Notes under the pieces: model-generated
Seen by the model: only the letters and a program-made list of their open reading frames with translations
Databases searched by the model: none
What the model was told of the DNA's origin: nothing
Assembly (NCBI GenBank): GCA_017621415.1
Contig: JAGATD010000033.1
Coordinates: forward strand, 5,852 to 69,851
Direction: 5' to 3'
DNA: 64,000 bases
Source: Clostridia bacterium
GTDB lineage: Bacteria; Bacillota; Clostridia; Oscillospirales; CAG-272
Made by a program: the position numbers and the translations under genes
Shown here: positions 4,577 to 50,893 of the stretch, piece by piece
Layout of the letters: every line of letters starts with the position of its first letter
Numbering within the stretch: position 1 is the stretch's first letter

Positions 4577-4785
4577 CACGTAGTTGTTTTTTTGTTGACA
4601 TAAGTCTGCGCTTTGAAAGGAAAAGCAACAAAACGCCGTTTTCGTAAAGCAGGTTTAAAAAAATTAATGCCTCGGTAAATAATAATATTAAAATGTTCAT
4701 ACTTTATTTATAATTATATGTTATAATCATCTGGTATAATTTATGAATTTATGCTGCTTTGGCGCGGCAGAACGGAGTAAAACAT

Positions 4786-5763: not shown

Positions 5764-5777
5764 GGAGAAAAGAAAAG

Positions 5778-6488: not shown

Positions 6489-6523
6489 AAGTAAAAACCT
6501 TTAGGTAAGGAAATTCTTAAGCT

Positions 6524-8134: not shown

Positions 8135-8139
8135 AACTA

Positions 8140-12902: not shown

Positions 12903-15050
12903 ATGAAAAACAAGATTATTGCTTTATTTCTTGTTGTAGTTATGGCGACCCTTGCGCTTGCAAGCTGCTCTCAGCCCTATGACTACACAGACGGAAATCT
13001 GGATGAATATATCCAGGTAAGCGACGGCTTCCTTAAGGCTCTTAAGGAGATAAAAATTGAGGATGCTGATTTTACTACCGACGAGGCTACAAGACAAAAT
13101 AAGGTTACCGCCAGCATCTACTCCACTCTTGCAAGCTTTGCTGAAAAGAACGGTGAGAAGAAGACCGACGGAACAATGAATGATGACGACACATTCTATT
13201 ATGCGTATTACATTACCTATACAAAAGACGGTAAAACATATGCGTATGATGTTGATGAGTTCATGAAAGAGACCGCGTCTCCCAAGAAGAGCATTAAGCT
13301 TTCGGCTATTGATGTAAATGATGAGGATGCCGATGCGCTTTCGGTTGCTATTAAAAAGGCTCTCTTCAGCGATACCGTAAAGACTTATGATTTCAATGGA
13401 TACAGCACTGTAACAACAGCGAAAACCGATATTAACAAGGATAAGGAATTCGCTACCGCGATCGTCTCTTACACACTCACAACAGGCGAGGGTGATACAA
13501 AGCAGGTTCAGGTTGCTGATGCTGCTATAATCAATCTTAAGCCCGCAGAAGGCGACAATAGCATTGAGGCTCAGATAGCTAAGGTTCTTACAGGCAAGGA
13601 CAACAAGGTTCAGATCTTTGATAAGGACAACTATGTAGAGGTTTGCACCGGTGTTGATGGCGACAACAAGACATATGATAACAAGTTTACTGTTACCGAC
13701 GGTGAGACCACATACACCTGCACCAACCTTAAGGTTCTCTTTGCTGCAGACAAGGCAGGCACGGAAATAAAGGTTGATGGAATAAAGCTTGATGCCGATA
13801 AGAGCAAGATAGACAGCCGTCATCCCGAGGGTGAAACTCTCAAGGTTGAAAAGAATACAGAGGTTACCTACCACGTTTACCCTGTATACTACTATGAGGT
13901 TTCTTCTGCTGATTCCGCAGAGGCAATAGTACGCGAGGCTCTTGCCGACAAGGTTACTGTTAATTCTCTTGATATATTCGCTGACGAGACCTACAAGAAC
14001 GGTGACAAGACTGTAAAGGCTCTTGTTGAGGAGCTTGTTAAGGTTTATTCCGATAATACCTCTACTAAGATAGCAGAGCTTAAGAAGGCATACGATGCAG
14101 CGGCAAAGGCTGTTACCGATGCAGGCGAGAACGCAACAGATGCTCAGAAGACTGCTGAGGCTGATGCCAAGAAGGCATACGAGGATGCTAAGAATGCTGC
14201 GACAAACAAGGTTAAAGAGATTGTTGCCGCTACAAAAGAAGGCGCTGAAAAGACTGTAAGCCAGCTTATAGTTGAACAGTATAGAGAAAGCGTTTACGAG
14301 AATCTCGAGGAGGCTTACAACGAAGATATAATTGAGAAAGTTGGCGAAGCAATCTGGAAGCTTATCGACACTCATGCGGTTCTTAAGGAATCTAACAGAT
14401 ATCCCGCTGAGCTTATCGAGGAGTCAAAGGCTCATCTCTATAACCAGTATGAACACGATTTCTATACAGGTGAGAACGAAACCACTCACACCTCTTACTA
14501 CTCCGAGTATAACGGCGACTTTGATGCATATCTTGTTTCTGTAACCAAGGCTTCCAGCCTTGACGGCGTTGATGCTAAGATTGAGGAGCAGGCAAAGGCA
14601 TTTGTTCTTCCCATAATGAAGCTTTATGCGGTTGCTAAGGTTCTTGAGGAGGGCTCGGCTGTTCTTTCTCAGCAGATTGCAGACAACAAGGCAGTTATCG
14701 AGGACTTTGCTGATCACGGTACACGCAGAGAATTTGAGACTGTTGAGTTCTTCGCTAAAAACTTCTATATCACCGATGAGGTATTCGAGGAATACAAGAA
14801 GATGGTTGGTAAGAATGAGTTCGAGAGCGCTATGAATTCTTACGGTGGTGAGACTAACATTCGCATAGCTCATCAGGTAAGCAACATCTTTGACTACCTT
14901 CTCATGGTTGATTACGATGAGCCCGAGGCAGCAGAGGGCGAGCACGTTCATGCTGAGATAACCTACAAGGAATTAGAGGGCGGCGAGAAGGTTGTTCCTT
15001 TCTACAATGTGTCTTACACAATCAAGTCGGAGAGCAATTCAGACAAATAA
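12903..15050 (+). CDS. lipoprotein with a trigger-factor-like C-terminal region, function unknown
   Basis: 715 aa. The signal peptide with lipobox is MKNKIIALFLVVVMATLALASC. The protein is rich in Lys, Glu, Asp and Ala. Its C-terminal half is paralogous to the 603-aa protein at 15629..17440 (VSQL, EAIWKLI/EAMWNHY, YPAELIEE/YPKAKVDD). Confidence 0.7.
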   Translation: MKNKIIALFLVVVMATLALASCSQPYDYTDGNLDEYIQVSDGFLKALKEIKIEDADFTTDEATRQNKVTASIYSTLASFAEKNGEKKTDGTMNDDDTFYYAYYITYTKDGKTYAYDVDEFMKETASPKKSIKLSAIDVNDEDADALSVAIKKALFSDTVKTYDFNGYSTVTTAKTDINKDKEFATAIVSYTLTTGEGDTKQVQVADAAIINLKPAEGDNSIEAQIAKVLTGKDNKVQIFDKDNYVEVCTGVDGDNKTYDNKFTVTDGETTYTCTNLKVLFAADKAGTEIKVDGIKLDADKSKIDSRHPEGETLKVEKNTEVTYHVYPVYYYEVSSADSAEAIVREALADKVTVNSLDIFADETYKNGDKTVKALVEELVKVYSDNTSTKIAELKKAYDAAAKAVTDAGENATDAQKTAEADAKKAYEDAKNAATNKVKEIVAATKEGAEKTVSQLIVEQYRESVYENLEEAYNEDIIEKVGEAIWKLIDTHAVLKESNRYPAELIEESKAHLYNQYEHDFYTGENETTHTSYYSEYNGDFDAYLVSVTKASSLDGVDAKIEEQAKAFVLPIMKLYAVAKVLEEGSAVLSQQIADNKAVIEDFADHGTRREFETVEFFAKNFYITDEVFEEYKKMVGKNEFESAMNSYGGETNIRIAHQVSNIFDYLLMVDYDEPEAAEGEHVHAEITYKELEGGEKVVPFYNVSYTIKSESNSDK

Positions 15051-19177: not shown

Positions 19178-19441
19178 ATCAGCAAACCTAAGAGAAAGAG
19201 TAGTAACCACATACGGTGTTATCTCAGCGAGCCGCAGGCGGTGTGAGTGCGGTATAAGATGATGCGGTGAATGGACTTTCGAGGGCGAACCGAAATTTAT
19301 TAAAGTAGGCTTCGACGGCGGCACCGTTATCAGCACAACGCATACTTCACGTGCGTGAGAGGACATTTTGTCTTAAAATCGGGTGGTACCGCGAATTTTT
19401 CGCCCTGAGCATTACTTTTCAGTTATGCTTGGGGCTTTTTT
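19178..19441 (+). promoter_or_regulatory. T-box riboswitch leader, specifier UGG (tRNA-Trp)
   Basis: Stem I elements are present: AGAGAAAGAGTAGTAA (GA/K-turn region) and CAGCGAGCC...GGTGTGAG (distal region). The specifier-loop context is GAA-TGG-A at 19272-19274. The conserved T-box sequence AATCGGGTGGTACCGCG lies at 19377-19393. It is followed by the terminator hairpin gccctgagcat/atgcttggggc plus a T-run. Confidence 0.85.
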
Positions 19442-19556
19442 ATTGAACTTGAAACTAGAGATCAGGGGTTGAAATGGGAATTATACGATGGCGGTGCTCG
19501 CAAAGAGCAAAAAACAAGTACTGAAAAAACGAATAAAATTAAAGGAAGAAAATAAA

Positions 19557-20783
19557 ATGAAATTTAATGATGTAGAATTTGATACTTATCTTAAGAAATT
19601 CCCTGATGAAAAGGGTTATTTTGGAAAATACGGTGGTGCGTACATAGCCCCCGAGCTTAAAGCTGCTATGGAGGAAATTACACAGGCTTACTTTACCATT
19701 TGTCAGTCTCGTAAATTTATTGCGGAGCTTCGCCGTATACGCAAGGAGTTCCAGGGCAGACCCACTCCTATTTCTCACCTTGAGCGTCTTTCTAACAGCC
19801 TTGGCGGTGTGCAGCTTTATGTTAAGCGCGAGGACTTAAACCACTCGGGTGCGCATAAGCTTAATCACTGTATGGGTGAGGCGCTTCTTGCGAAATATAT
19901 GGGCAAGAAGAAGGTTATTGCGGAGACCGGTGCTGGCCAGCACGGTGTTGCGCTTGCTACCGCTGCGGCATACTTCGGACTTGAGTGCGATATTTATATG
20001 GGCTCTGTTGACATTAAAAAGCAGGCGCCTAATGTTGCCAGAATGAAGATACTCGGAGCAAATGTTATTGAGGTAACACACGGCCTTGCTACACTTAAGG
20101 AGGCGGTTGACGCAGCCTTTGAGGCTTATGCGAGAGAATATAAGGATGCTATCTACTGCATCGGCTCGGTTCTCGGTCCTCATCCTTTCCCAATGATGGT
20201 TCGTGATTTTCAGCACGTTGTTGGTGAAGAGGCTCGCGCCCAGTTCCTTGAAATGACAGGAAATATTCCCGATACTGTTGTTGCATGTGTTGGCGGCGGC
20301 TCAAACTCTATGGGTATGTTCTCAGGATTTCTCAATGACCCTGTTGAGATTATCGGTGTTGAGCCCCTCGGCAGAGGACCTAAGCTCGGCGACCATGCGG
20401 CAAGTCTTAAGTTTGGCACAGAGGGCATTATGCACGGCTTTAACAGCATTATGCTCAAGGACGAGAACGGTGAGCCGGCTCCCGTTTATTCGGTTGCATC
20501 CGGACTGGACTACCCTTCATCCGGACCGGAGCACGCATATCTGCACGACCTGGGCAGAGTTAAGTATGATACTATTGACGATGATGAGGCAATTGATGCT
20601 TTCTTCAAGCTGGCGCGCATGGAGGGCATTATCCCTGCAATCGAGAGCTCACACGCTGTTGCTTACGGCATAAAGCTTGCCAAGGAGCGTAACCACGGCT
20701 CTGTTCTTATCTGCCTTTCGGGCAGAGGTGATAAGGACATGGACTACGTTCTTCAGAACTACAAAATTCCCGAAAACAAGTAA
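19557..20783 (+). CDS. trpB: tryptophan synthase beta chain (stand-alone, no trpA adjacent)
   Basis: ATG at 19557. Motifs [29 protein letters not shown] (the PLP lysine region) and [10 protein letters not shown]. The ORF-track start at 19488 lies inside the leader and terminator. Confidence 0.9.
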
Positions 20784-30787: not shown

Positions 30788-30833
30788 CCTCCTTATATTA
30801 TACTTAATATCTTATATCTTTACATTTCGTAAT

Positions 30834-30862
30834 ATTATAACATAATATAAATATAAAGTCAA
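30834..30862 (-). promoter_or_regulatory. sigma-A promoter of the pyr operon
   Basis: The minus strand reads TTGACT-17 nt-TATAAT (ttgactttatatttatattatgttataat). The leader to the pyrC ATG is about 40 nt. Confidence 0.55.
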
Positions 30863-30907
30863 GAGGGGAAAATATATTTTATGCAGTTTTAGAGTCGTTT
30901 TTCTCTT

Positions 30908-32278
30908 TTAACCTGTGATTATGTCGAGAACCTTTTGAGCATCTGTATTACCGTAAGGAGGGATGTAGAATTTTTCAAGACCAAGGGCGGAGTAAATGTT
31001 ATCAACCGCAAATACTGCAAGGTGAGTTGCGTTAATGTCACCCTCGTCAAGCCCTTTTATTCCCAAAGGCATACCCATATTCCAGCCGCCTGAGGCATCT
31101 TTGGGGTAAGAGAATGCGCCGTCAGCACGCTTGAACTGTGAAAGCTTGTCTGCGGTTGCGCCGATAAGAGCTTCGGCATTGTCAATAAGCTCTTCTCTTA
31201 TACATTCGGCAATTTTTTTACCCTCCTCACCGCCGATTTTGCACAGGTCGGAGAGGATAACGTTTGTTGCCACCCAGGGGTTGAATATATCGGTAATGCT
31301 TTGTACCTCCTCGTCTGAGGTTATTACCGAAATTGCTGTTCTGACAGTTTTTTCAGCCCTTGGTATCATAACATTTGCGGCAGAATAGAGCCTGCATATC
31401 TTCATTATTCCGCTGATGCTACCGTAGTCTATTTTTTCGTCCCAAATTCCGTTTTCAAGCTGATTTTCGGTAAGCCAGTCGGTAAGCAGACCGTATAGAG
31501 TGTAGTCTGCTCCCTCTTTTTTAAGAAGCTTATCACGGTATACCATTTCTGGCTGCTGAGTGATAAAGTGGCTGCCTGTGGAGTAGGAGTTGTTAGTAAG
31601 CTTAAGCGAGCTTAAATGCTCTAAGAAAGACTCTTTGTCCTTCATAAACGGTGCATAGAATGCTTGGCTTTTCTCAGCTTTTGACTCTTCTGCGTTGCTT
31701 GGAGCAGCGGGCTTTTTAACCCTCTCGCCGTTTGCCAATATTCCGTCACCGATAATGCCTGTTGGGGTGTCATAGGTTGGCAGAGCGCCAAGCGCGGTGA
31801 TGACCGCAACAGCTCGTGAAGAATCTCTTGAGCGTCTTTCAATTTTTTCTTCATTTCGTTTTCTGTCAAACTGAGGGTGATAGAAATATCCGTCTGTATC
31901 TTGAAGCCCCTTTAGAAAAGCTATGATTTTTACCTTTGTTTCTTCGGGTAAAAATTTGGAATACTTTTTCCCAAAGGTAAGTCCCAGCTTTGGCAGGGTG
32001 ATAAGGGTCTGCCAAGTGCTGTCAGCATCGGGCAAAAGACCAAAGGTCATGCCCTTGTAGATTAGTGAATCGTTATCACGCGCACTGTTTGAGAAATAAA
32101 ATCCGCCAATCTTCTTGTCATATAGCCTTGCAAACCACTCGGGAAGCTCCTTTGAATATATTCTTTCGTAATAGTCGGCAAGAGCCGAAGACAGCCTGAT
32201 ACCGCGCTCGCCGCCCACGTGGGCGGCGAGTTCTTTAAATTTTTCGGTATCGGCTAGGGAATACTTTTTGTTTTCCAT
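30908..32278 (-). CDS. cytoplasmic alpha/alpha-toroid-repeat protein, paralogue of the central domain of the 1397-aa lipoprotein; function unknown
   Basis: 456 aa with no signal peptide. It shares GGFYFSNSAR, LPDADSTWQ, FLKGLQDTDGYFYHPQF, RRSRDSSRAV, PTYDTPTG, NGIWDE and GDINAT with 34668..38861. Confidence 0.7.
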   Translation of the reverse strand: MENKKYSLADTEKFKELAAHVGGERGIRLSSALADYYERIYSKELPEWFARLYDKKIGGFYFSNSARDNDSLIYKGMTFGLLPDADSTWQTLITLPKLGLTFGKKYSKFLPEETKVKIIAFLKGLQDTDGYFYHPQFDRKRNEEKIERRSRDSSRAVAVITALGALPTYDTPTGIIGDGILANGERVKKPAAPSNAEESKAEKSQAFYAPFMKDKESFLEHLSSLKLTNNSYSTGSHFITQQPEMVYRDKLLKKEGADYTLYGLLTDWLTENQLENGIWDEKIDYGSISGIMKICRLYSAANVMIPRAEKTVRTAISVITSDEEVQSITDIFNPWVATNVILSDLCKIGGEEGKKIAECIREELIDNAEALIGATADKLSQFKRADGAFSYPKDASGGWNMGMPLGIKGLDEGDINATHLAVFAVDNIYSALGLEKFYIPPYGNTDAQKVLDIITG

Positions 32279-32301
32279 AGCGATAAAATATTAATTATTG
32301 A

Positions 32302-34437
32302 TTATTGTGCCTCAACAACTCCGAGATAAACGTTGTCGAAGGTGAGGGAGAGGTTGTTGGTGTAGCCTGCGCCTCTGCAGTAGAAGCCGAAGCCGTAGAA
32401 GTTGGTATCTGCTGAGTTATTTGTGAGAGTATAGTCTGCAGTCTTAACTCCGTCAACGTAAACCTCAAGATTGGTTTTTGTGCCAACGGTGTAAATAAAC
32501 GTTACATTCTTTGTTTCACCCTTAGCAAAATCAACTCCATAAAGTTCAAAGTTAGAATCTGCAAAGTTCGTGCCGTCACTGGGTGTTGTGTAATTTGCGT
32601 AGTTGTAGCTGAACATGTTTCCGTTCGTAAAATCTCCCTTGTTTGCGCTATAGAACCCAACAAATGCCGGAGAGAGATAGTTGCTGTTATCTGCAGCAGC
32701 GTATTTTGTTTGACCGCCATTATAGGTAATATCTGCTTCGAATACATACTTTGTGCCGTTTGCATAAGTCTTTGTGCTGTCATAATCTGCGTTCTTGAAT
32801 GCGAAAGCATACCAAGCGGGGTTGCCTGAAAGGGTAAGTTTGCCATCCGCTGCGGTGAAGTCACCGTATTTTCCGGTGTTTCTATCATGGTCGTCATCTT
32901 CTACAACAGCGCTTGTGTCTCCGTCGGTATCAAAGCTATACTTGGTTCCTGTGGTTGCGGTTTCGTAGTAGCTATCAATTTTTTCTTCAGGAATGGAGCC
33001 CTTAGGTCCAATGTAAACATTATCAAATTCAAGGTCGAGAGATGAGGTGTAGGAGGAATTACGTGTATAAACACCAAATCCGTAGAAGTTCTTGTCATCA
33101 GCGAAGGAGCTGCCGTATCCAAGTGCGATGTCGGTGCAATTTGCAAGATCCTGCTTCACTTCATTTACATAGAATGCAACATTTTCTTTTGCATAATTGT
33201 TTCTTGCAGTATAATCAGCACCCGTTGTTCCTGTGGAAAGGTTGCTGTTATCTCCAACGGTGTACTCTATCGCAATGTTGTACTTAACACCCTTTTCAAA
33301 TCTTGTATTAAACATTGTGATAGCCTGTGCGTTTTCATCGGTAAACTTCAAATAGGAATAAACCATCATATTATTGTTATGAACGGTTCCGTTAGAAAGA
33401 AGTCCAACAAATGCAGCATTAAGATCTGCGGTTTTGGGAGCGCCACCGAGGTAAGTGAAATCTGCCTCAAATACATACTTTGTACCCTCTTCAAAGTTTG
33501 CCTGCATATTATTTGCAATACCGTGAGCACCGTTGCCGCTAAATCCGAGCGCACCGTTTGCAATAGTGCCTCCCGTGATACCGGTTGTATCATTTGTATC
33601 GAATGCGTATCTTGTACCATCTGTCTCACTGTTGTAATATACACCTGCAACATAGTTGCTTGCAAAGAGGGGAGAGAAGATAGCGTTTGCAGAAACAGAA
33701 ATTGGAACTCCGTCTTCAATGGTTATATTTCCATCAATTGAGGAAGTCCACTTTCCTGCATAAGACTGACCCTCGGGAGCTGTGCCTGTGTACACAGGGA
33801 GAGTGATTTTGTCGGTTGCAGAGAAGATGCCTGCGCTATACTTACCGTCAATTGTTCCCTCGTAGCCGTCAGCAATTGCAACATAGGACATATCCGAGGG
33901 CTTAAGGTCGGTGTCACCGAGGAGACCCTTTATCTGGTCGCCGTAGCTGATAAGAGTTTCGCCAAAGGTTACGTATTCGTCAGCGAGAGCTTCGTCGTAC
34001 TGTACCTCGTATGCATACTCGGTAATGCTGTAACGAACAACATCACTATAAACATAGCCGTCGGCAGTAGAAAGTCTTGCAACTGCGTATATCTGCTTGT
34101 TCATGTATCTTGGAGCAATGCCCGGGGTAAGGAATACTGCAAGCTCTTCACCATAAATGGTGGATTTTTCCAGGTAGTCTACTATTGTGTAGTTTGCGGC
34201 TTCTGTCGCAGGGTCTTGGGGCTCACTTTCGTAAACGAGAAGGTCAACCGCATCATAGTCATCAGCCTTAACCGCGAAGGCGATAGAGATTGTTCCTCCG
34301 TAAGAGAGGTTCTTGTACTTGATTTCAACTGTGGGAGCTGTGTTTTCGGCAAGCGCGGTTACACAAACCATAGCGCAAATCAGCAATATCACAGCTAGAG
34401 CTGAAGTTAAAATCTTAACTAATTTTGTGTTTTTCAT
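32302..34437 (-). CDS. secreted protein with a tandem A-B beta-rich modules cassette; function unknown
   Basis: 711 aa. The signal peptide ends ...CVTALA/EN. Two C-terminal modules of about 200 aa are homologous to the last two modules of the 1397-aa protein (GTKYVFEADFTYLGGAPKTADLNAAFVGLLSN; NGTKYVFEADITYNGG...FYGFGFYCRGAGYTNNLSLTFDNVYLG). Confidence 0.75.
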   Translation of the reverse strand: MKNTKLVKILTSALAVILLICAMVCVTALAENTAPTVEIKYKNLSYGGTISIAFAVKADDYDAVDLLVYESEPQDPATEAANYTIVDYLEKSTIYGEELAVFLTPGIAPRYMNKQIYAVARLSTADGYVYSDVVRYSITEYAYEVQYDEALADEYVTFGETLISYGDQIKGLLGDTDLKPSDMSYVAIADGYEGTIDGKYSAGIFSATDKITLPVYTGTAPEGQSYAGKWTSSIDGNITIEDGVPISVSANAIFSPLFASNYVAGVYYNSETDGTRYAFDTNDTTGITGGTIANGALGFSGNGAHGIANNMQANFEEGTKYVFEADFTYLGGAPKTADLNAAFVGLLSNGTVHNNNMMVYSYLKFTDENAQAITMFNTRFEKGVKYNIAIEYTVGDNSNLSTGTTGADYTARNNYAKENVAFYVNEVKQDLANCTDIALGYGSSFADDKNFYGFGVYTRNSSYTSSLDLEFDNVYIGPKGSIPEEKIDSYYETATTGTKYSFDTDGDTSAVVEDDDHDRNTGKYGDFTAADGKLTLSGNPAWYAFAFKNADYDSTKTYANGTKYVFEADITYNGGQTKYAAADNSNYLSPAFVGFYSANKGDFTNGNMFSYNYANYTTPSDGTNFADSNFELYGVDFAKGETKNVTFIYTVGTKTNLEVYVDGVKTADYTLTNNSADTNFYGFGFYCRGAGYTNNLSLTFDNVYLGVVEAQ

Positions 34438-34484
34438 GTTAAAATCCTTTCATATGTAAGTTTTGGTTTACTTTTTCGCAAGTT

Positions 34485-34619
34485 TTACACCCAACCGCCG
34501 CCGGGTATTGTGGTTCCGCCGTCAAACTCCATATCGCCTGATGTAGTTATTACATCTTGCGAATCAAGAAAAACAAGCTGCAGCTCGGCGGGCTCGTACA
34601 GATGCTTGTCATTTCGCAT
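34485..34619 (-). CDS. 44-aa micro-ORF (below the ORF-track cut-off)
   Basis: ATG at 34619 follows the SD-like AAAGGAGAGG. The product is MRNDKHLYEPAELQLVFLDSQDVITTSGDMEFDGGTTIPGGGWV. It lies in the 230-nt gap between two co-directional genes. Confidence 0.45.
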   Translation of the reverse strand: MRNDKHLYEPAELQLVFLDSQDVITTSGDMEFDGGTTIPGGGWV

Positions 34620-34667
34620 ATAACCGCCTCTCCTTTCTTTTGTTTGTGAAATTTATGTTGCCTAAAT

Positions 34668-37600
34668 TTATTGTTCTACCCATCCGTCTTCGGGGATTTG
34701 AGTTTCGCTATTGCCAAAGGTCATGTCCTCCGAACCGTCTTCAAAGGGAAGATTAGGCATTGGAGTAGGCTCGGGTTCAGGTTCAGGCTCGGGTTCAGGA
34801 GTTAAGCTGTCGGAAAGCGGGGTATCTGTTACTCCGACAAACACATTGTCAAACTTAACTTCCAGCCCTCTTGTGTATCCTGTGCCTCTAAAGTAGAAGC
34901 CGAAGCCCCAGAAGTTAGTATCAGAGAGTCCCTTTGTGGCTGTAAGATCAAACTCAGCCTGCTTTTCGCCATTTACATAGAAGATAAAGCCGCCGCCAAC
35001 CGTATATTCGGCACGGAGATTGTAGGTTACACCTATTGCAAGCTCTGCACCAAACAGACTTAAGCTGTCCTGGTCTCCGTCGCCGTTGTAGTCAACACCC
35101 TTGTATTTGAGGAAGCTGTGGGCGAACATATTGTCATTCTTTATTACATCGGTTTCGGCGCCGATGAAGCCTACAAACGCAGCTCCAAGGTCGGAGGAGG
35201 ACATATTGCGTCCGCCAAGGTAGGTGAAGTCGGTTTCAAATACATAAACAGTTCCGTTTTCGTAAACTGTGTCCTTGTTGTATCTGTCGTTCTTGAAGCC
35301 GATGCCGTACCAGGTTGGGTCATCGCTTACGATAAACGAGCCGTCTGCAATTTCATATTTTCCGCCGCCTGTGGTACTGCCCTTGTATTCGGCAATTCCG
35401 TAGGATGTAGCGGTTGTAAAGTGATATCTTGTTCCTGTGTAGTACGAGTTACCGTAGTAGGTCTTATCTGCCTCGGGAATATCGGGATATTCGGGCAGAG
35501 GAGGCTCGGGGTCGGGGTCGTAGCCGGGAACGGTTGTGTCGGGTGCTTGGCTTCCAACCTTTATGTTATCAAAATCAAGCTCCAAGCCGTCGCTCTTGCC
35601 GCCTCTGGTGTAAATACCAAGACCAACAAAGCTTCTGTCAGATGCATATGTTGTAAGACCTATGTTAAACACATCCTTGTTAATGCTTGCAGCCTCTGTT
35701 CCGTCAACATAGAATTTAAAGCCTGATGATGCATAGTTGAATCTATCCTGCCAGCTTGAGGAATTGTAAAGACCGTCGCCTACGGTGTACTCTATACGTA
35801 TTCTATAGGTTTTACCCTTTTCGAGAGGCGCGCCAAATACTGTAATTCCACTACCCTCTGTGTCGGTGTAGGAGATATATCCGTATGCGAACATATTTCC
35901 GTTCTTAAGGCTTGTTTTATTTGAAAGCAAACCAATAAACGCTGCGTTAAGGTCATTTCCTGTGGGTGCTCCGCCCGCAAATGTCAGGTCGGCCTCAAAG
36001 TAATAGGTTGTTCCAACCGCATATTTTGACTGCGCGGTATCATTAAGAATAGCAAACCCGTCCATGCCGTACTCGGTGTTAACGGTAAGCTTTCCGTCTG
36101 TTAAGTCAATTCCGCCGGGAGTTTTATCCTCTTCACCGTAGAATGTGTGAAGAATTCCGCTTGTTTTTCCGTCATCAAAGGTATATTCGGTGAGAGTGTC
36201 GGTATCTATAGGCTTATTTGTGCCGTCAATGTTGAGGGCAGGGGATTTAGATGGGTCTGTTATAGGTTGATATTCAATGTCTGTCTTGTAAGCATTGATA
36301 TCATCAAGAAGAATTACACAATCAGCGCTTGAGAGGGTTTGCAGCTTCATGTAGGAGTAGGTGCCTCCGGGAGTAGCGCTTCCTGTAAGCTTTTCGCCGG
36401 ACTGGTTATAGTAGTTGTCTGTAACGGCAACCAACTTGTCGTTGTAGTATATTCTTGCTCTTACCGTATTTTCGTCACCGGGGAAGTATTCAAGCCTAAG
36501 GTTAAACCATTGGCCAAATGCAGGCTGAACATCAATGACATTATCTATAGATTTTGATGCTGAATTAGATGATGATTCTACAATGCTGACTCTTCCGGAG
36601 TCTTTTCTTAAGGAGACCATATAAGAGTTATCAAGGAATATCTGCACCGAGTAGGATGACTCCATATCAAGAACACAGAAGTCTCCCTCGAATACAAAAC
36701 AGGAGGTTTTTTTAGCAGCGGCATAGGGAAGCAGGAGAACCTGGTCATTGCCGCCGGCCTTTGAGTCTATCTTTAAAACATTTCCATCTCTATTGGCTCT
36801 GGGGTCTTTAATAACAATAATTGAGCCGCCTGCTTGGGATGAGCCGGCAGATGTGTTTGTGTCCAGGGGAGCCGCATTTACAGCTTCCTCATCAAAGGTT
36901 ACAGGGATAACCTCTTTTATTTCCTCTTTGTCCTTTATAACAGGCTGAAGCGAATTAAGTATAAGAAGATATCTGTACCAGTCTGAGTATGTGTATATCG
37001 GAACCATATCGTATTTCAGCGCAGAATAAATAACGCTTACGATATCCGAGGATGCAAGCATTGTAGCATTTACATCGCCCTCAATGCTTCCGGGAACTGC
37101 GGCAGGCAGACCCTGAGAGGTTGCTGCCGAGGTTGTTTGGTTATAAGAGAATGAACCGTCGGGCTTGATGAATAAAGCAAGCTTTGCGCGTGTTGCTGCA
37201 ATATAGCCCGGAGCTCCGTCTCGAAGCTTTTTCAAAAGAGTGTCTGCGAGAACAACATCGCTGTCGTCGCCGCTTCTTAACGAGCTTATAATTCTGTTCA
37301 TTGCCGCCCATGTGTTATAAACATCTGTTATAGCGCTCGGATTTTCATCTGACAGCATAGCCGACATAGCCTTTTCTGCCGCAATATCAGCCTTGGGAAG
37401 AGGAATTTTGGCACTGGAGAATATTCCGGCAACCTTCATAAGTCCATTTATTCCGGCATATCCTGTATTTTCTTCCCACAAGCCGTTATCAAGCTGCTTG
37501 TCTTTTAGCCAGGTTATGAGAATTTCAACAAGGGAATAATCTTTTCCCTCCTCCTTAAGCACACTGTCACGGTAAATTATCTCGCTTATCTGAGCAACAA

Positions 37601-38861
37601 GTCCGCTGCCTACAACATAAGAATCGGCGTTGATATCATGCTCGGCAAGATAACTTTCAAAAGCTTCTTTGTTTTCGAGGTGAGCCGGAACGGCAACCGC
37701 AGTTGCTATAATTTTTGAGACTGCGAGAACCTTGTTAGATGTAAGTCTTTCTGTTAAAGGTGTGTTGCTGGGGAGAACTGTTTCATCCGCGGAATCCTCT
37801 CCGCCAACACCTGTGGGAGTTGAATAGGTAGGCTTTTCGCCAAGAGACTTAAGCACCGATACACTTCGAGAAAGGTCCCTGGCTCTTCTGGAGGTGTGCA
37901 GGTCTGTAAGGGCAGCACCCCACTGAGGGTGATAGAAATATCCGTTAGGATGCTGAAGTCCCTTAATGAATGAAACAATTTGAGCTTTCATCCAATCGGG
38001 CAAAAGCTTTGAGTAATTTCTGAATCCGTCATTTTCGGTATATCCCATGCCCGATGCAGATATAAATGACAGGGCTTGATATGTACTGTCTGCATCTGGT
38101 AGATATCCGGGAGTGTTACGTGCTGAGTTTGAGTAGTAATAACCGCCGACTGCAGGGTCGTAAAGATTGGCAAACCAGGAAATGAGCTCTTCGATATAAA
38201 TAGTGTAAAGCTGTTTAAGCGCTGCGGTAGTTTTACTTCCGTTTTCAGCTCCTATCTGTTTTTCAAGAAGTGTCCACTTTTCGGCTATCAAGGCTTGGTC
38301 TATCGCTTCGTAATGGGCAACAATATTAACAACCTCGGTGTAAAGAATGCCTGCCTTAAGGCTAAGCGAGGATTTTACATAGTTGTCGTTAAGATGGTTT
38401 ATAGCTTTTATTAAAGCAATATCATCTACCGAATTGTCGTAAGCAATTGCAATAGAGGAGCCGTCTGTGTAGATGAGTATTCTCGGTCTGCCTTCGCTTT
38501 CTTCCTCGGTGGTCAGGTCAATTCTGTTAAGCAACCTGTAAGCCTCCTTGGATACAGCTCTTTCGGTGCTTCCAAAAACGATTTCGTGGGAACGTTGCTC
38601 GTCTGTAGCTTTGATTATTTCGGGGGAAAAGCCGACATTGGCAGCAAGGTTATAATAAAATGTATAAAATGAGTCTGTAACTCTGTCGTTTTCGCTCTCA
38701 GGCATTATGATAGCCACGGGAGTACTTTCGCCATATATGAGCTTATCGTTGCTCGAGTCTGAGCTTCCCGATGGTTTTGTGTTATCGCCTGGCGCGCAGG
38801 AGATAAGAATAGCTGCCATAACGATTAGAATTGAGCACAAAGTAAATACTCTTTTTTTCAT
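34668..38861 (-). CDS. giant multidomain lipoprotein: N-terminal domain, alpha/alpha-toroid-like domain, a jelly-roll-like domain, the A-B modules cassette, a PE linker and an acidic tail; function unknown
   Basis: 1397 aa preceded by RBS AAAGGAAGG. The signal peptide with lipobox is MKKRVFTLCSILIVMAAILISC. The domain paralogies are listed under the findings. Confidence 0.8.
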   Translation of the reverse strand: MKKRVFTLCSILIVMAAILISCAPGDNTKPSGSSDSSNDKLIYGESTPVAIIMPESENDRVTDSFYTFYYNLAANVGFSPEIIKATDEQRSHEIVFGSTERAVSKEAYRLLNRIDLTTEEESEGRPRILIYTDGSSIAIAYDNSVDDIALIKAINHLNDNYVKSSLSLKAGILYTEVVNIVAHYEAIDQALIAEKWTLLEKQIGAENGSKTTAALKQLYTIYIEELISWFANLYDPAVGGYYYSNSARNTPGYLPDADSTYQALSFISASGMGYTENDGFRNYSKLLPDWMKAQIVSFIKGLQHPNGYFYHPQWGAALTDLHTSRRARDLSRSVSVLKSLGEKPTYSTPTGVGGEDSADETVLPSNTPLTERLTSNKVLAVSKIIATAVAVPAHLENKEAFESYLAEHDINADSYVVGSGLVAQISEIIYRDSVLKEEGKDYSLVEILITWLKDKQLDNGLWEENTGYAGINGLMKVAGIFSSAKIPLPKADIAAEKAMSAMLSDENPSAITDVYNTWAAMNRIISSLRSGDDSDVVLADTLLKKLRDGAPGYIAATRAKLALFIKPDGSFSYNQTTSAATSQGLPAAVPGSIEGDVNATMLASSDIVSVIYSALKYDMVPIYTYSDWYRYLLILNSLQPVIKDKEEIKEVIPVTFDEEAVNAAPLDTNTSAGSSQAGGSIIVIKDPRANRDGNVLKIDSKAGGNDQVLLLPYAAAKKTSCFVFEGDFCVLDMESSYSVQIFLDNSYMVSLRKDSGRVSIVESSSNSASKSIDNVIDVQPAFGQWFNLRLEYFPGDENTVRARIYYNDKLVAVTDNYYNQSGEKLTGSATPGGTYSYMKLQTLSSADCVILLDDINAYKTDIEYQPITDPSKSPALNIDGTNKPIDTDTLTEYTFDDGKTSGILHTFYGEEDKTPGGIDLTDGKLTVNTEYGMDGFAILNDTAQSKYAVGTTYYFEADLTFAGGAPTGNDLNAAFIGLLSNKTSLKNGNMFAYGYISYTDTEGSGITVFGAPLEKGKTYRIRIEYTVGDGLYNSSSWQDRFNYASSGFKFYVDGTEAASINKDVFNIGLTTYASDRSFVGLGIYTRGGKSDGLELDFDNIKVGSQAPDTTVPGYDPDPEPPLPEYPDIPEADKTYYGNSYYTGTRYHFTTATSYGIAEYKGSTTGGGKYEIADGSFIVSDDPTWYGIGFKNDRYNKDTVYENGTVYVFETDFTYLGGRNMSSSDLGAAFVGFIGAETDVIKNDNMFAHSFLKYKGVDYNGDGDQDSLSLFGAELAIGVTYNLRAEYTVGGGFIFYVNGEKQAEFDLTATKGLSDTNFWGFGFYFRGTGYTRGLEVKFDNVFVGVTDTPLSDSLTPEPEPEPEPEPTPMPNLPFEDGSEDMTFGNSETQIPEDGWVEQ
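34767..34799 (-). repeat. in-frame (Pro-Glu)n dinucleotide-codon repeat encoding PEPEPEPEPEP
   Basis: The plus strand reads ggctcgggttcaggttcaggctcgggttcagg. It encodes a linker between the last module and the C-terminal tail of the 1397-aa protein. Confidence 0.8.
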
Positions 38862-38967: not shown

Positions 38968-38996
38968 AGTGTACCATACCATATTTTAAATGTCAA
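38968..38996 (-). promoter_or_regulatory. candidate sigma-A promoter (extended -10) for the 1397-aa lipoprotein operon
   Basis: The minus strand reads TTGACA-17 nt-TACACT with TGg upstream (ttgacatttaaaatatggtatggtacact). The leader is about 100 nt. Confidence 0.4.
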
Positions 38997-39044: not shown

Positions 39045-39080
39045 AAAAAAGACTGCCTCAAAAATGAATTTGAGACAGTC
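39045..39080 (-). terminator. intrinsic terminator downstream of the ABC transporter gene
   Basis: On the minus strand the hairpin gactgtctcaaa/tttgaggcagtc is followed by T6. Confidence 0.8.
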
Positions 39081-39106
39081 TCGGTAATAGATTAAGGTAA
39101 AGCTTA

Positions 39107-42100
39107 TTATTCTGTTCTGAGAGCTACCACAGGGTCTTTCTTAGCTGCGGAGCGAGAGGGAATAATTCCTGCGATAAGTGTGAGCACCATGCTGATAATA
39201 ACCAGAGCCAAAGCGCCCTGCCAGGGAAGAATAGCTCTAATGCTGTCAAGTCCTGTAAAGTACTGCACGATAGCCGTAATGGGTATGCAAAGAATGAGAG
39301 TTGTCAGAATACCGAGAGCGCCTGCCGCAAGGCCTATGATCAGTGTTTCGGCATTGAATACTCTGGAAACATCCTTCTTTGATGCACCCATAGCACGAAG
39401 TATACCAATCTCCTTTATTCTCTCAAGAACCGAGATGTTGGTTATAATACCAATCATTATCGATGAAACAACAAGGGAGATAGAAACAAATGCTATAAGC
39501 ACATAGGAGATAGCATCAATGATAATGGTTACAGAGGACATCATTGCGCCTACGATATCAGTGTATTTGATCTCGTCCTTTTCACGTCCGTCCGCCTTGG
39601 CAGCCTTGTTGTAATCCTTAATAAACTCTTCGACACGCTCTTTAGACTCAAAGTCTTTAGCAAAGAAGTTTATGGCTGCGGGTTTAGCCTTTTCGGCATC
39701 GTCAAGAGTTTCAAGAACGCTGTCGTAGGTTGCGTCTATTCCGGGAGCCATATTGTAAAGAGTTTCTTCAAGTCTTACGAACAGGTCGTCAGGCATTGCC
39801 GCAAGGAGAAGTGAGAAAATCTTTTCATCAATCTCAAGATTCATAACAAAGTCATTCATCTCGGAATAAACCTCTGTCATTACCGTCTCGTCGGCATAAT
39901 CTGCAAGGCCCGGTATACCGGAGTTCAGCATAGTTGCAATCTGAGCAAGCATGGGCGGCAGAGTGGGGAGGGTTGTTGCGATATTTTCAGGGGTGATGTT
40001 TATACCAAACTGAGATGTCTGCGCTGAAATCATAGCGCACAGAAGGGTAAGCATAGCGCTATTGCCCTCGTTTATAGAGCCGACAAGCTTTTCATAGACC
40101 GCTGTCTGCTCTACCGCAGGAAGACTTATTATTGCGCCGCTGAGATTCTGAGCGGTTAATGAGCCAAGCTCCGGGTGCTTAGAACTCAAATCGGATATTA
40201 CCTCATTAACCGCGGCAGGGTCTGCGAGACCAACAATTCCGGGGATGCCCAAAGCGACGATTAGAGGCGCGGTCTCCATTTTGTTAAGAACCGGGAGGAG
40301 AGCTGTGATATTATCCTTAGTAACCGTAATTCCGTTTGTCATAGAGGAAATGGTTGCAAATGTTCTGTCTGTTCCTGTGGGATTTTTTGCATAAGCAGAG
40401 CTTATAATTTTTGTGAGTATCGCTGCCTGGTCCTTTTCGGGAAGAAGCATAAACATTGTGTTAATGTTTGCTCTGTTTACGTTAAGCATAGATGAAATAT
40501 TTTCATCTTTGAGAATCTCGTTGGTCATAACCTTGTAGAACATATCCATGGTAGCGGAGTCAATTTTGTGGATAAGCTCATTGATGTTCTCTCTTGTGTA
40601 AACCGTTCTTTCAAAAGCAAGACCTGTAAGCACGTTTACACCGGGAGTTTCCTTTTGCTGATTGATAACCTCGCTGGCTGCGTTCTGAGCAAGGATGTAG
40701 TCTGTGAGAGCCTTGGTGTAGCCGATAGCTCCCGAAATGCTAGTTGCTGTGGCTCCCTCTTTGGGTCTTACGATACCCGCAATTTTAATCTCGACGCCAT
40801 TTTCCGAAACAAATTTTTCCTGATCGAAATTAAAGCCGTCACGCAGGTCATTCCATATAGGATATTCCTTGTCGCTTCCTTCAACCTTATAGGTTTTACC
40901 GTTTTCGGCAAAGAAATCAGAAGTGGTAAGAAGCTTAAATTTAGTATTAAGAATTTCTTCATAGGTAAACGGAGGAATCTCTTCGGATTTGTATTCTCCG
41001 TTCATCAAATCCTTTATTTCTTGGTCGATATTGCTTGGGTCGCGCATACCAAGCATATAAAGGGTCATTTTGCTTATCTGGTTGTTTGAGTTAACAACGA
41101 GCACAACCTCGTTATACTCTTTTGGCCAATTTCCCGAGATAACCTCATACTGCTGGTCGAGCAGCTCCTGGTTGTTTATCATTTCGGAGAATACGTCCAT
41201 TCCCATAGAGCCGCCCATTTCCATAAGCTCGCTCATACCGGCGAAGGCATCGCCCATATGCTCAAACACCGTCTCCATTCCGACCTTTACCTTGCCGTCT
41301 AACGTATATACCTGCAAGTTGTAGTCGTAGGCATACTGTATATCGCTGATATAATCCTTTATATCGTCATAGTTTTCTTCAATATGCTTTTTGAATGCCT
41401 CCAGGTTGTTTTCAACAGTTGACGACATTGCACCCATCATAGTGCCGAAGGAATCATCAACATATATTTTGCCGGAATCGCGGTAGTTGCCTTCGTTGGA
41501 TACACTGGTCATAGCCGCAAGCATTGCCGACATATCCTGCGTATGCTTTTGGAGAGTGAGAGGATAGGTCGAAAGAGTATCCTCTTGAACTTGGGCAATA
41601 AAGGCATTTATACCTGTTGAGAGCGCAAGAATCAAGGCAATACCGATAATACCAATACTTCCCGCAAAGCTTGTCATTATGGTGCGACCTTTTTTGGTGG
41701 CAAGGTTGTTAAGGGAGAGGGAAACAGCCGTAAGGAATGACATTTTGGCCTTTTCCTTCTTCTTTTTGGCTGCTTTTCTTTCCTTAAAGCTTGCGGTTGC
41801 CAATCGAGCCGCCTCATCAGCCTCAGCCTTTGCCTTTTCTTCAAGAAGCTTAGCTTCTGCCGCAAATTCCTCTTCGGTTACAGGGTTAGAGTCCTCGGTA
41901 ACAAGACCGTCAAGCAGGCGAACTATTCGTGTGGAATATTCCTCCGCAAGCTCGGGGTTATGTGTTACCATAATAACAAGACGCTCGCCCGCAATCTCGC
42001 GGATAAGGTTCATAATCTGAACTGAGGTAACTGTGTCTAGAGCGCCGGTAGGCTCATCTGCCAGAAGTATCTCCGGGTCATTTACCAGTGCGCGGGCTAT

Positions 42101-42553
42101 TGCAACTCTCTGGCACTGACCACCCGAGAGCTGGTTTGGGCGCTTATAATACTGGCTGGAAAGACCAACTCTGTCAAGAGCTCTTTTTGCTCTTGCAACA
42201 CGTTCTTCTTTTGAGATGCCCGAGATGGTGAGCGCAAGCTCCACGTTAGAGAGAATTGTTTGGTGGGGAATAAGGTTATAGCTTTGGAAAATAAAGCCGA
42301 CTCTGTGATTGCGGTATACGTCCCAGTCGCGGTCCTTGTATAACTTTGTGCTTCTGCCGTTTATTACAAGGTCGCCGTCGGTATATTTATCAAGTCCGCC
42401 AACGATGTTAAGAAGGGTTGTTTTTCCGCAGCCCGATGGACCTAAAATAGAAACAAATTCTTTGTCTCGGAAGGCTATATTAATCCCTTTAAGAGCCGAG
42501 ACGGTCTCAGAGGATGTAACGTAGTCCTTTGTAATATTTTTTAATTCAAGCAT
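39107..42553 (-). CDS. fused ABC ATPase / FtsX-MacB-type permease with a very large extracytoplasmic domain
   Basis: 1148 aa. Walker A GPSGCGKTT, signature LSGGQCQRV, Walker B LLADEPTGALD. A Lys/Glu-rich linker follows, then TM1 at about residues 291-320, about 680 aa of non-hydrophobic sequence, and three C-terminal TM helices with FtsX-like motifs (LRAMGASKKDV). Confidence 0.85.
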   Translation of the reverse strand: MLELKNITKDYVTSSETVSALKGINIAFRDKEFVSILGPSGCGKTTLLNIVGGLDKYTDGDLVINGRSTKLYKDRDWDVYRNHRVGFIFQSYNLIPHQTILSNVELALTISGISKEERVARAKRALDRVGLSSQYYKRPNQLSGGQCQRVAIARALVNDPEILLADEPTGALDTVTSVQIMNLIREIAGERLVIMVTHNPELAEEYSTRIVRLLDGLVTEDSNPVTEEEFAAEAKLLEEKAKAEADEAARLATASFKERKAAKKKKEKAKMSFLTAVSLSLNNLATKKGRTIMTSFAGSIGIIGIALILALSTGINAFIAQVQEDTLSTYPLTLQKHTQDMSAMLAAMTSVSNEGNYRDSGKIYVDDSFGTMMGAMSSTVENNLEAFKKHIEENYDDIKDYISDIQYAYDYNLQVYTLDGKVKVGMETVFEHMGDAFAGMSELMEMGGSMGMDVFSEMINNQELLDQQYEVISGNWPKEYNEVVLVVNSNNQISKMTLYMLGMRDPSNIDQEIKDLMNGEYKSEEIPPFTYEEILNTKFKLLTTSDFFAENGKTYKVEGSDKEYPIWNDLRDGFNFDQEKFVSENGVEIKIAGIVRPKEGATATSISGAIGYTKALTDYILAQNAASEVINQQKETPGVNVLTGLAFERTVYTRENINELIHKIDSATMDMFYKVMTNEILKDENISSMLNVNRANINTMFMLLPEKDQAAILTKIISSAYAKNPTGTDRTFATISSMTNGITVTKDNITALLPVLNKMETAPLIVALGIPGIVGLADPAAVNEVISDLSSKHPELGSLTAQNLSGAIISLPAVEQTAVYEKLVGSINEGNSAMLTLLCAMISAQTSQFGINITPENIATTLPTLPPMLAQIATMLNSGIPGLADYADETVMTEVYSEMNDFVMNLEIDEKIFSLLLAAMPDDLFVRLEETLYNMAPGIDATYDSVLETLDDAEKAKPAAINFFAKDFESKERVEEFIKDYNKAAKADGREKDEIKYTDIVGAMMSSVTIIIDAISYVLIAFVSISLVVSSIMIGIITNISVLERIKEIGILRAMGASKKDVSRVFNAETLIIGLAAGALGILTTLILCIPITAIVQYFTGLDSIRAILPWQGALALVIISMVLTLIAGIIPSRSAAKKDPVVALRTE

Positions 42554-50569: not shown

Positions 50570-50645
50570 TGGAGCGGATTACGGGGCTCGAACCCGCCAC
50601 CTCCACCTTGGCAAGGTGGCGCTCTACCAAATGAGCTAAATCCGC
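50570..50645 (-). tRNA. tRNA-Gly (anticodon GCC), CCA encoded
   Basis: The reverse complement is gcggatttagctcatttggtagagcgccaccTTGCCAAggtgg...ttcgagccccgtaatccgctcca. It folds as a cloverleaf with anticodon loop ttGCCaa. Confidence 0.9.
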
Positions 50646-50698
50646 AGGTATTTAATTTGTTGTCGCTCTGTTCGAGCCGGGAGGAAAGCTGCGCAATT

Positions 50699-50775
50699 TG
50701 GCGACTCGGATGGGGCTCGAACCCACGACCTCTAGCGTGACAGGCTAGCGCTCTAACCAACTGAGCTACCAAGCC
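50699..50775 (-). tRNA. tRNA-Asp (anticodon GTC), CCA encoded
   Basis: The reverse complement is ggcttggtagctcagttggttagagcgctagcCTGTCACgctag...ttcgagccccatccgagtcgcca. Confidence 0.9.
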
Positions 50776-50817
50776 AAAGATTAAATAAAGCATAGAGCCG
50801 TTGCCGACTCTATGCTC

Positions 50818-50893
50818 TGGTGGAAAGTACAGGGCTCGAACCTGTGACCCTCTGCTTGTAAGGCAGATGCTCTCCCAACTGAGCTAACCTTCC
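50818..50893 (-). tRNA. tRNA-Val (anticodon TAC), CCA encoded
   Basis: The reverse complement is ggaaggttagctcagttgggagagcatctgcCTTACAAgcaga...ttcgagccctgtactttccacca. Confidence 0.9.

Follow-up and report, generated by a model that had tools for sequence, protein, structure and literature searches.

What kind of system is encoded by four consecutive minus-strand genes that lie between an ABC ATPase-FtsX fusion gene on one side and a pyr operon on the other in a Clostridia bacterium (Oscillospirales, CAG-272; assembly GCA_017621415.1)? The genes fall within the stretch analysed here, hereafter the window, which comprises 64,000 nucleotides (nt) of contig JAGATD010000033.1 (positions 5,852 to 69,851 of the forward strand) and from whose first letter window coordinates are counted. 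In reading order they encode a 1397-amino-acid (aa) surface lipoprotein (L, 34668-38861), a 44-aa micro-peptide without a signal peptide (m, 34485-34619), a 711-aa secreted partner (S, 32302-34437) and a 456-aa cytoplasmic alpha/alpha-toroid protein (c, 30908-32278). An original prediction, made from the letters of the window, had claimed four co-directional open reading frames (ORFs) here, and ORF translation of the window verified them on the minus strand at the expected coordinates; the lipobox LISC of the first, the signal peptide of the third ending in TALA/EN, and the lack of a signal peptide in the fourth, which had likewise been claimed, were all read in the translations. Searches of Pfam, NCBIfam, PADLOC and, by sequence, PDB gave nothing significant for any of the four proteins, in agreement with the earlier statement that they belong to no named family. 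Judged by its relatives, this region is one copy of a lineage-specific, previously undescribed four-gene surface module of uncultured herbivore-gut Clostridia.

The evidence that carries this answer is recurrence. ORFs were called in 79 sources and labelled by hidden Markov models (HMMs) for the toroid, the jelly-roll cassette and the micro-peptide, and 38 complete four-part modules were found among them, with three metagenome-assembled genomes (MAGs) holding 12, 10 and 7. The gene order is LcmS in 16 modules, cLmS in 6 and LmSc, the order of the window, in 2, among others. Whether the trio and its micro-ORF stay together in relatives had been proposed as a check on the original prediction, and the neighbourhood proved strongly conserved with the micro-ORF included; no confident hits to characterised families were obtained and the genes were not scattered singly, these being the two outcomes that had been named as contradicting it. 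In species-representative genomes, the toroid family was found only in uncultured MAGs labelled Eubacteriales, Clostridia, Oscillospiraceae or "uncultured Ruminococcus", with up to 18 toroid-family loci per MAG, and where sample names state a source they point to the herbivore gut (roe deer). The plasmid collection held no relatives, and no source names any member of the toroid family.

Toroids inside and outside the cell

The shared element that first ties the module together is a toroid domain present in both L and c. Residues 194-635 of L and the 456-aa protein are 38% identical over 461 columns (E 2e-94), and every string quoted in support of the proposed paralogy with roughly residues 200-650 is present. 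The HMMs place the toroid of L at residues 188-636 and the cassette at 891-1347, and we delimit the extracellular alpha/alpha toroid to residues 194-636 (36954-38282, minus strand). L begins with a signal peptide read from the translation (residues 1-22; 38796-38861, minus strand), in which the lipobox L19-I20-S21-C22 follows a Lys/Arg-rich n-region and a hydrophobic core and conforms to the bacterial lipoprotein pattern [LVI][ASTVI][GAS]C. The ORF of c cannot be extended upstream and its N-terminus has no hydrophobic stretch. The same division holds across the family. When 1.84 billion representative proteins were searched with a profile, 1,477 toroid clusters at 50% identity were recovered (982 at E <= 1e-30), and the 456-aa protein has 79 word-indexed homologues. 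The toroid either stands alone, in proteins of about 400-500 aa, or occupies residues ~170-650 of lipoproteins that are 600-2,700 aa long. A signal peptide was absent from all 33 free-standing representatives inspected and a lipobox was present in most of 111 large ones, so that one toroid outside and one inside, as first suggested for the window, is a rule of the family. The cytoplasmic and lipoprotein toroids do not form separate deep clades.

Structure prediction supports the earlier guess of an alpha/alpha toroid. The AlphaFold model of c, built from a 60-sequence alignment, is an all-helical toroid with a predicted local distance difference test score (pLDDT) of 93.8 and a predicted template modelling score (pTM) of 0.92. 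Its best PDB match in Foldseek is 8pak, a single-domain squalene-hopene-cyclase (SHC)-like protein (E 6.7e-4), at a template modelling score (TM-score) of only 0.32-0.40; a literature search on the 8pak and 8paj proteins gave nothing relevant. Further matches are to drimenyl diphosphate synthase, the complement C5 TED (E 0.2-0.4), GH15 and GH9, all of them alpha/alpha toroids with TM-scores of 0.3-0.4, and the GH15, GH9 and PL17 matches lie at E 0.5-3. PF00432 (Prenyltrans) is the only recurrent Pfam signal, in 5 of 60 toroid members with a best E of 0.0074, and none of the 60 reaches its Pfam cut-off. TED_complement is touched by one of the 60 (E 0.12), and the toroid has neither the CxEQ thioester motif nor a conserved Cys; GH15 is touched by one member at E 0.12, and no glycoside hydrolase (GH) or polysaccharide lyase (PL) profile matches. 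Sequence and profile searches of PDB with the toroid, the N-terminal domain of L and the N-terminal domain of the secreted partner gave nothing below E 0.25, and hhalign detected no remote homology between the toroid and neighbouring enzymes. Since the best structural matches and the lone recurrent profile signal agree in kind while the latter is always sub-threshold, the toroid is predicted from its model to belong to the terpenoid-cyclase/prenyltransferase fold class and to no described family.

Catalytic signatures known from that fold class were sought in the alignments. Cys is absent from the invariant and the >=90% conserved columns of the toroid alignment and from those of the 175 domains analysed, so the Zn2+ site (Asp/Cys/His) of prenyltransferases is lacking, and the toroid likewise has no conserved Cys to match the Cys-Cys-His zinc ligands of LanC-like cyclases. 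The DxDD acid motif of class II terpene cyclases is not conserved; the toroid has P-D-A-E/D-S-T instead, in which 93-97% of members have E at the third position and the fourth is S. These results bear on the idea that the toroid is a divergent class II terpene-cyclase or prenyl-binding domain that handles an isoprenoid or lipid-linked intermediate, with its ligand present on both membrane faces. The idea draws on the best Foldseek matches, which are the SHC-like cyclases and drimenyl diphosphate synthase, on the sub-threshold Prenyltrans signals, on the toroid copies on both sides of the membrane, and on the LLPD-A-(E/D)-S-T motif, which we take to sit at the DxDD position of SHC-type repeats. 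We nevertheless consider it very unlikely: the consensus there is D-A-E-S rather than DxDD, the TM-scores reach only 0.3-0.4, a single toroid is present and not the two-domain architecture of the cyclases, no isoprenoid biosynthesis genes lie nearby, and a single lipid substrate is hard to reconcile with 10-20 diversified modules in a genome and with the lectin-like modules and CE4 domains.

The toroid instead has an invariant set of its own (W48, D68, Y133, R148, R151, D152, K293 and N333), and about 40 polar or aromatic positions are kept to the same degree by cytoplasmic and lipoprotein toroids, among paralogues that are only 30% identical. This sharing argues for, and is consistent with, one fixed chemistry or ligand moiety on both faces of the membrane, as the original prediction had suggested.

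Variants of the toroid gene were also encountered. Proteins of ~685 aa at L014:5357-7411 and L019:6063-8129, and likewise P0024, P0027 and P0128, are fusions of a C-terminal toroid with an XRE-type HTH_3 domain and an SRA-like segment that matches PF18491 (E 1.4e-11). Such HTH_3-toroid fusions stand at the head of two complete modules (L014 and L019), which suggests that they are one-component regulators with the toroid as sensor and that a cytoplasmic toroid can sense a ligand. At some loci (L004:3355-11275, L018, L020, L022 and L034), 4-7 signal-less toroid genes stand in tandem and lack a micro-ORF; as a rule a single large toroid protein is encoded ahead of them. L034 also holds five successive toroid lipoproteins of ~900 aa. 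It follows that the toroid also works outside the four-part module. Two signal-less proteins, P0106 (804 aa) and P0107 (1127 aa), contain two tandem toroids, each of which in P0107 is followed by a segment resembling the N-terminal domain of L.

Jelly rolls, secreted partner and matched tails

The remainder of L, as delimited by its ORF and the HMMs, consists of an N-terminal domain between lipobox and toroid and, after the toroid, three jelly rolls, a Pro/Glu linker and a tail. The N-terminal domain (residues ~41-190; 38292-38741, minus strand) is of an unrecognised family with the core motif HEIVxG..R.IS..AY...LIYSDG.SVAIAYD; it is kept in 148 of 152 large toroid lipoproteins, and its alignment matches nothing in PDB or Pfam. 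Homology to the SRA-like segment of the HTH-fused toroids was ruled out (hhalign probability 0.05%). A lead to a GH20b/DUF4838 type was not borne out either, as one member matches Glyco_hydro_20b at E 0.1 and hhalign links the domain to no neighbouring DUF4838 protein. BLASTP and hhalign delimit jelly-roll module A at residues 891-1103 (35553-36191) and module B at 1136-1346 (34824-35456, both minus strand), and the two are homologous to each other (BLASTP E 6e-25; hhalign probability 100%, E 1.5e-44). The mid domain that precedes them (residues 637-890; 36192-36953, minus strand) is by hhalign a third, divergent concanavalin A (ConA)-like jelly roll, with a probability of 94.9% and E 4.4e-8 against module A and a probability of 83% against module B, and is kept in 127 of 150 large relatives.

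The same cassette ends the secreted partner. Residues 275-709 of S are 36% identical to residues 891-1346 of L (E 1e-68), which substantiates the two-module cassette previously described as common to both exported proteins. The signal peptide of S ends in A28-L29-A30, followed by E31-N32, and leads into a partner N-domain of ~240 aa (residues 32-272; 33622-34344, minus strand) that defines the exported protein after the micro-ORF: 42 of 46 partners have it, and the 56 ORFs in which it occurs altogether encode exported proteins only; it has no PDB or Pfam match. Jelly rolls A (275-480) and B (494-709) follow (32311-33615, minus strand). The AlphaFold model of S has a pLDDT of 81 and draws 79 PDB matches at E < 1e-3, every one of them ConA-like, so that the ConA/LamG jelly roll guessed from the sequence is well founded as a fold. 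Closest to the jelly rolls is the lectin domain of Vibrio cholerae sialidase (2w68), at a TM-score normalised by target length of 0.58, and other matches include legume lectins, PL7 lyases, BoNT Hc and Vip3. Profile signals are limited to weak TS_C (trans-sialidase lectin) and Laminin_G_3 matches; the latter (PF13385) stays below the Pfam cut-off in the window protein, where it covers residues 1271-1332 of L at E 0.029, and in 2 of 19 relatives. The cassette carries the motifs GTxYxFEADxTYxGG ... FxGFGxYxRG ... FDNVxxG, and S has 26 homologue clusters. At two loci (L006:11400-14198 and L009:8630-11428), a 932-aa exported protein fuses the partner N-domain (37-255) directly to a toroid (462-925), and so unites in nature two parts that are elsewhere distributed between S and L or c.

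S resembles the L of its own locus. Among 52 secreted partners, 27 match the same-locus L at E < 1e-5, and with 46 candidate L proteins the cognate one ranks first in 14 cases and among the top three in 26. Such likeness could encode pairing specificity, and this is one ground for regarding the exported proteins as a non-enzymatic surface coat or adhesin, in which variable L and S attach to particles, host or cells and S docks on L through the jelly rolls or the tail. The massive expansion of paralogues with variable C-terminal modules, the ConA-like folds of toxins and adhesins such as BoNT Hc and Vip3, and the lack of any recognised catalytic family would all fit a coat of this kind. We judge it unlikely, however, because the ~40 polar and aromatic toroid residues conserved across paralogues of 30% identity speak for a fixed ligand or chemistry and not for variable adhesion, and because the catalytic motifs of a CE4 segment appear intact in 27 relatives. 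The corollary that would reduce the cytoplasmic toroids to regulatory or storage by-products is similarly doubtful, as it poorly explains hundreds of conserved signal-less toroid genes.

Between L and S lies the 44-codon micro-ORF for m (MRNDKHLYEPAELQLVFLDSQDVITTSGDMEFDGGTTIPGGGWV; 34485-34619, minus strand), which is preceded by a AAAGGAGAGG Shine-Dalgarno sequence 7 nt before the ATG. Its consensus reads M(K)K..YE.P.LEI..F...DVI.TS, an acidic/Gly stretch and GGWT, with D22, S27 and W43 invariant. A database of 5.8 billion proteins yielded 100 clusters of the family with E down to 6e-13, the ratio of nonsynonymous to synonymous change (pN/pS) is 0.19 over five orthologous pairs, and distantly related micro-peptides from metagenomes share the same gene context. 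Of 46 cases that could be resolved, 45 have a gene for an exported protein next after the micro-ORF, with a median gap of 49 nt, and a signal peptide is never present in the micro-peptide family. On these grounds the micro-ORF is, as far as sequence can tell, a genuine conserved gene family, and it deserves more weight than the original prediction allowed it. A literature search on the micro-peptide motif gave nothing relevant. A lasso-peptide precursor was considered and rejected, given that YxxPx[LIVM] occurs in only 12 of 50 peptides, the residue after T-S is variable and none of the B, C and RRE maturase families is found among the top 25 of the neighbour tally; 48 of 50 micro-peptide tails have no Cys, which a LanC substrate would need. 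We also disfavour a ribosome-arrest peptide or upstream ORF, as the distance from Trp to the stop ranges over 1-8 residues and the same tail is retained at the protein level on L despite synonymous differences.

That tail is the third part held in common. After a PEPEPEPEP linker, L closes with an acidic/Gly tail ...IPEDGWVEQ (residues 1370-1397; 34671-34754, minus strand) that resembles the end of the micro-peptide: L of the window ends in ...EDMTFGNSETQIPEDGWVEQ and m in ...GDMEFDGGTTIPGGGWV. A tail of this type with a near-terminal Trp is borne by 26 of 79 large toroid lipoproteins in the loci and by 20 of 96 large toroid representatives, against 1 of 310 control ORFs, 0 of 47 secreted partners and 0 of 102 cytoplasmic toroids. 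The micro-ORF preferentially follows tail-bearing lipoproteins (odds ratio 7.5, p = 2.5e-4), and the tail of L scores higher against the micro-peptide of its own locus (mean local score 39.4) than against those of other loci (27.0; Mann-Whitney p = 2e-8, permutation p = 5e-5), as in the cognate pairs GGWTPERP/GDWTPERN and GGGYHAGAWS/GGGYHGGAWS. The two tails of the window differ in synonymous codons, which rules out recent gene conversion as the source of their match and indicates that the match is maintained at the protein level. The toroids of c and L are likewise more alike within a locus than between loci (identity 0.402 versus 0.363, p = 7e-6). Whole-locus duplication alone would not bring cognate parts closer together, and the parts must therefore, so far as these comparisons tell, have been repeatedly exchanged or co-adapted within loci. 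In overview, a giant L is accompanied by locus-matched free copies of its own parts: the toroid in the cytoplasm, the jelly rolls as a secreted protein and the tail as a signal-less peptide.

The pairing of tails raises the question of whether the toroid recognises them. Its cavity might bind or modify the acidic, Trp-ended tail, L being the fused form, in which one exported chain has both toroid and tail, and c plus m the split cytoplasmic form. In favour of this, one toroid and one tail are indeed present in each compartment. Peptide termini are substrates of other alpha/alpha toroids, among them protein prenyltransferases and LanC, and this precedent favours such a role, as do the invariant Arg/Lys and aromatic residues of the toroid, which would suit an acidic, aromatic C-terminus. 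The confinement of the tail to L proteins and micro-peptides (1/310 controls, 0/47 S, 0/102 c) points the same way, together with its co-occurrence with the micro-ORF (odds ratio 7.5) and the locus matching (p = 5e-5) that persists despite synonymous divergence, and the HTH_3-toroid fusions heading two modules recall the layout of RRNPP systems. Several observations fit poorly. Two thirds of L proteins are tail-less, and a micro-ORF is missing from the vicinity of many c genes, the tandem arrays of 4-7 among them; no conserved position sets micro-linked apart from micro-less cytoplasmic toroids; and the fixed neighbour of the micro-ORF is the exported S, not c. The toroid moreover has no conserved Cys or known catalytic signature, the peptide carries no export signal, and maturase, protease and exporter genes are absent. 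We therefore hold tail recognition by the toroid to be rather improbable, although it is the strongest of the alternatives to the reading that we favour below. If true, it would amount to a previously unknown recognition, signalling or RiPP-like (ribosomally synthesised and post-translationally modified peptide) system coupled to a surface lectin apparatus, with 10-20 orthogonal cassettes of matched specificity per genome.

A tentative role at the cell surface

The reading that we favour, if only tentatively, is that the four genes form a ligand-specialised surface module for the capture and processing of glycans, in which docking or regulation falls to the tail and the micro-peptide. Each module would be dedicated to a single extracellular ligand, which is most probably a carbohydrate. 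On the outside of the membrane, L would present its toroid and its lectin-like modules, to which larger relatives would add a CE4 deacetylase, and S, whether released or docked, would bear the same recognition modules. The cytoplasmic toroid would bring the same chemistry or binding to the imported product, and the tail and micro-peptide would supply a short, module-specific docking or regulatory motif.

The observations that we count as supporting a carbohydrate role are the lectin-type folds, the CE4 segments, the adjacent glycan genes and the saccharolytic herbivore-gut hosts. A CE4-like segment is found in 27 of 206 large relatives with the metal-binding and catalytic motifs HDDG and HSxTH conserved, and two giant relatives pass the PF01522 threshold (27.6 and 24.7 bits against a cut-off of 23.1 bits). 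Genes adjacent to the operons encode glycosidases and an esterase (GH4, GH92, GH123, GH36, DUF4838 and CE4), proteins of sugar and amino-sugar metabolism (PIG-L, MurQ-like SIS and ROK) and regulators of the AraC/PocR type. A CE4-like segment is also seen in a 2424-aa giant toroid lipoprotein, the second of its locus (L001:11764-19038), in which a GW-type tail, ...GSDEQGWLGKE, is preceded by a Cys-rich repeat (C..DGICDKC, C.H.DE.GDE.CDKC); L070:9332-15367 is a like case.

A number of points weigh against a role in glycan capture. The lipoprotein of the window has no CE4 domain, no domain of the module core reaches the threshold of a CAZy-related Pfam family, and no sugar transporter is conserved beside the modules. 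The nearest structures of the toroid are terpene cyclases and TED rather than glycosidases, at TM-scores of 0.3-0.4, and jelly rolls can bind proteins or lipids as well as sugars. Adjacency to AraC genes is not significantly enriched (7 of 56, versus 21 of 312 in the rest of the contigs; p = 0.17), and a glycan model assigns the signal-less micro-peptide no specific role despite its constant place before an exported protein.

A gene set so expanded likely matters for how these uncultured Clostridia meet their surroundings, probably plant or host glycans. The module offers a natural set of orthogonal, co-adapted domain/peptide pairs and could reveal either a new carbohydrate-active family or a new principle of peptide recognition. 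It also makes a conserved component of a 44-codon ORF that annotation pipelines leave unnamed.

Genomic setting and comparison with known systems

In the window, the unit is bounded upstream by a terminator-like hairpin found by motif scan (39049-39082, minus strand), which ends the ABC-FtsX gene. A promoter-like site (TTGACA, 17 nt spacer, TACACT; 38968-38996, minus strand), recognised by consensus match only, lies ahead of the L gene, and we infer that the four genes are co-transcribed. An Rfam scan of the operon leader returned no riboswitch at gathering thresholds. At the other end, a strong promoter-like site at 30862-30834 precedes pyrC, and the interval that separates the 456-aa gene from pyrC (30788-30907) yielded neither a terminator-like site nor an Rfam element such as a PyrR attenuator; since no terminator-like site intervenes, transcription of the module may run on into the pyr operon.

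The upstream neighbour (39107-42553) encodes a 1148-aa protein with an ABC ATPase (21-169) and an FtsX-type permease (1021-1141) separated by ~750 unassigned residues, and it is not conserved beside the module at other loci. Elsewhere in the window, a 1000-aa secreted protein (9796-12798) and a 715-aa lipoprotein (12903-15050), both Pfam-less and unrelated to the toroid and cassette HMMs, lie directly 3' of an ABC-2 transporter gene and two ABC_transp_aux (GldG-like) genes (4759-9783). A T-box leader (19181-19410, 109 bits) was found upstream of a gene for a pyridoxal phosphate (PLP)-dependent enzyme of the PALP family (19488-20783), and three consecutive tRNA genes occupy 50573-50893 on the minus strand.

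No described counterpart of the gene architecture was found, and the PADLOC models of anti-phage defence matched none of the four proteins. Pfam, NCBIfam and PDB have no entry for five families of the module: those of the N-terminal domain of L, the toroid, the jelly-roll cassette, the partner N-domain and the micro-peptide. Partial likenesses can be drawn to several known systems. With the terpenoid cyclase/prenyltransferase/TED superfamily the module shares an (alpha/alpha)6-type toroid with repeated (D/N/G)G-aromatic hairpin turns, but its toroid lacks DxDD, CxEQ and Zn-binding Cys, has an invariant set of its own, and is encoded twice in the same operon, once within a lipoprotein and once as a cytoplasmic paralogue. 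Modules A and B and the mid domain have the fold of ConA-like lectins and glucanases (LamG, CBM40-type, PL7), whereas their sequences form an unrecognised family with its own motifs. The Rap-Phr and other RRNPP systems similarly comprise many paralogous cassettes in which a cognate small ORF with a cassette-specific C-terminus adjoins a gene for an alpha-helical repeat protein, with rare HTH_3 fusions; in the module, however, the receptor-like domain is a toroid and not a TPR, the peptide has no export signal and a link to Opp or a processing protease is missing, so that it does not qualify as such a system. Fused and split borosins offer a precedent for one motif that is both fused to a large protein and free-standing, but the module has no methyltransferase or other known modifying domain, and the fixed neighbour of its peptide is exported.

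The polysaccharide-utilisation loci of Gram-positive bacteria resemble the module in their anchored, multi-domain, lectin-like proteins, in the CE4 domains of some relatives, in the glycosidase and AraC genes often found near, and in the many diversified copies per genome of saccharolytic gut hosts. The core of the module differs in having no recognised GH or lyase domain and no conserved transporter, and it adds two features not known from described loci, a conserved micro-peptide and a paralogue of the surface domain in the cytoplasm. What sets the module apart from all of these is the combination of fused and split parts sent to three locations, a micro-peptide, locus-specific matching and at least 10 modules per genome. 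It may accordingly be new at the level of families and system organisation, while in its general role it may turn out to be a variant of glycan-processing surface proteins.

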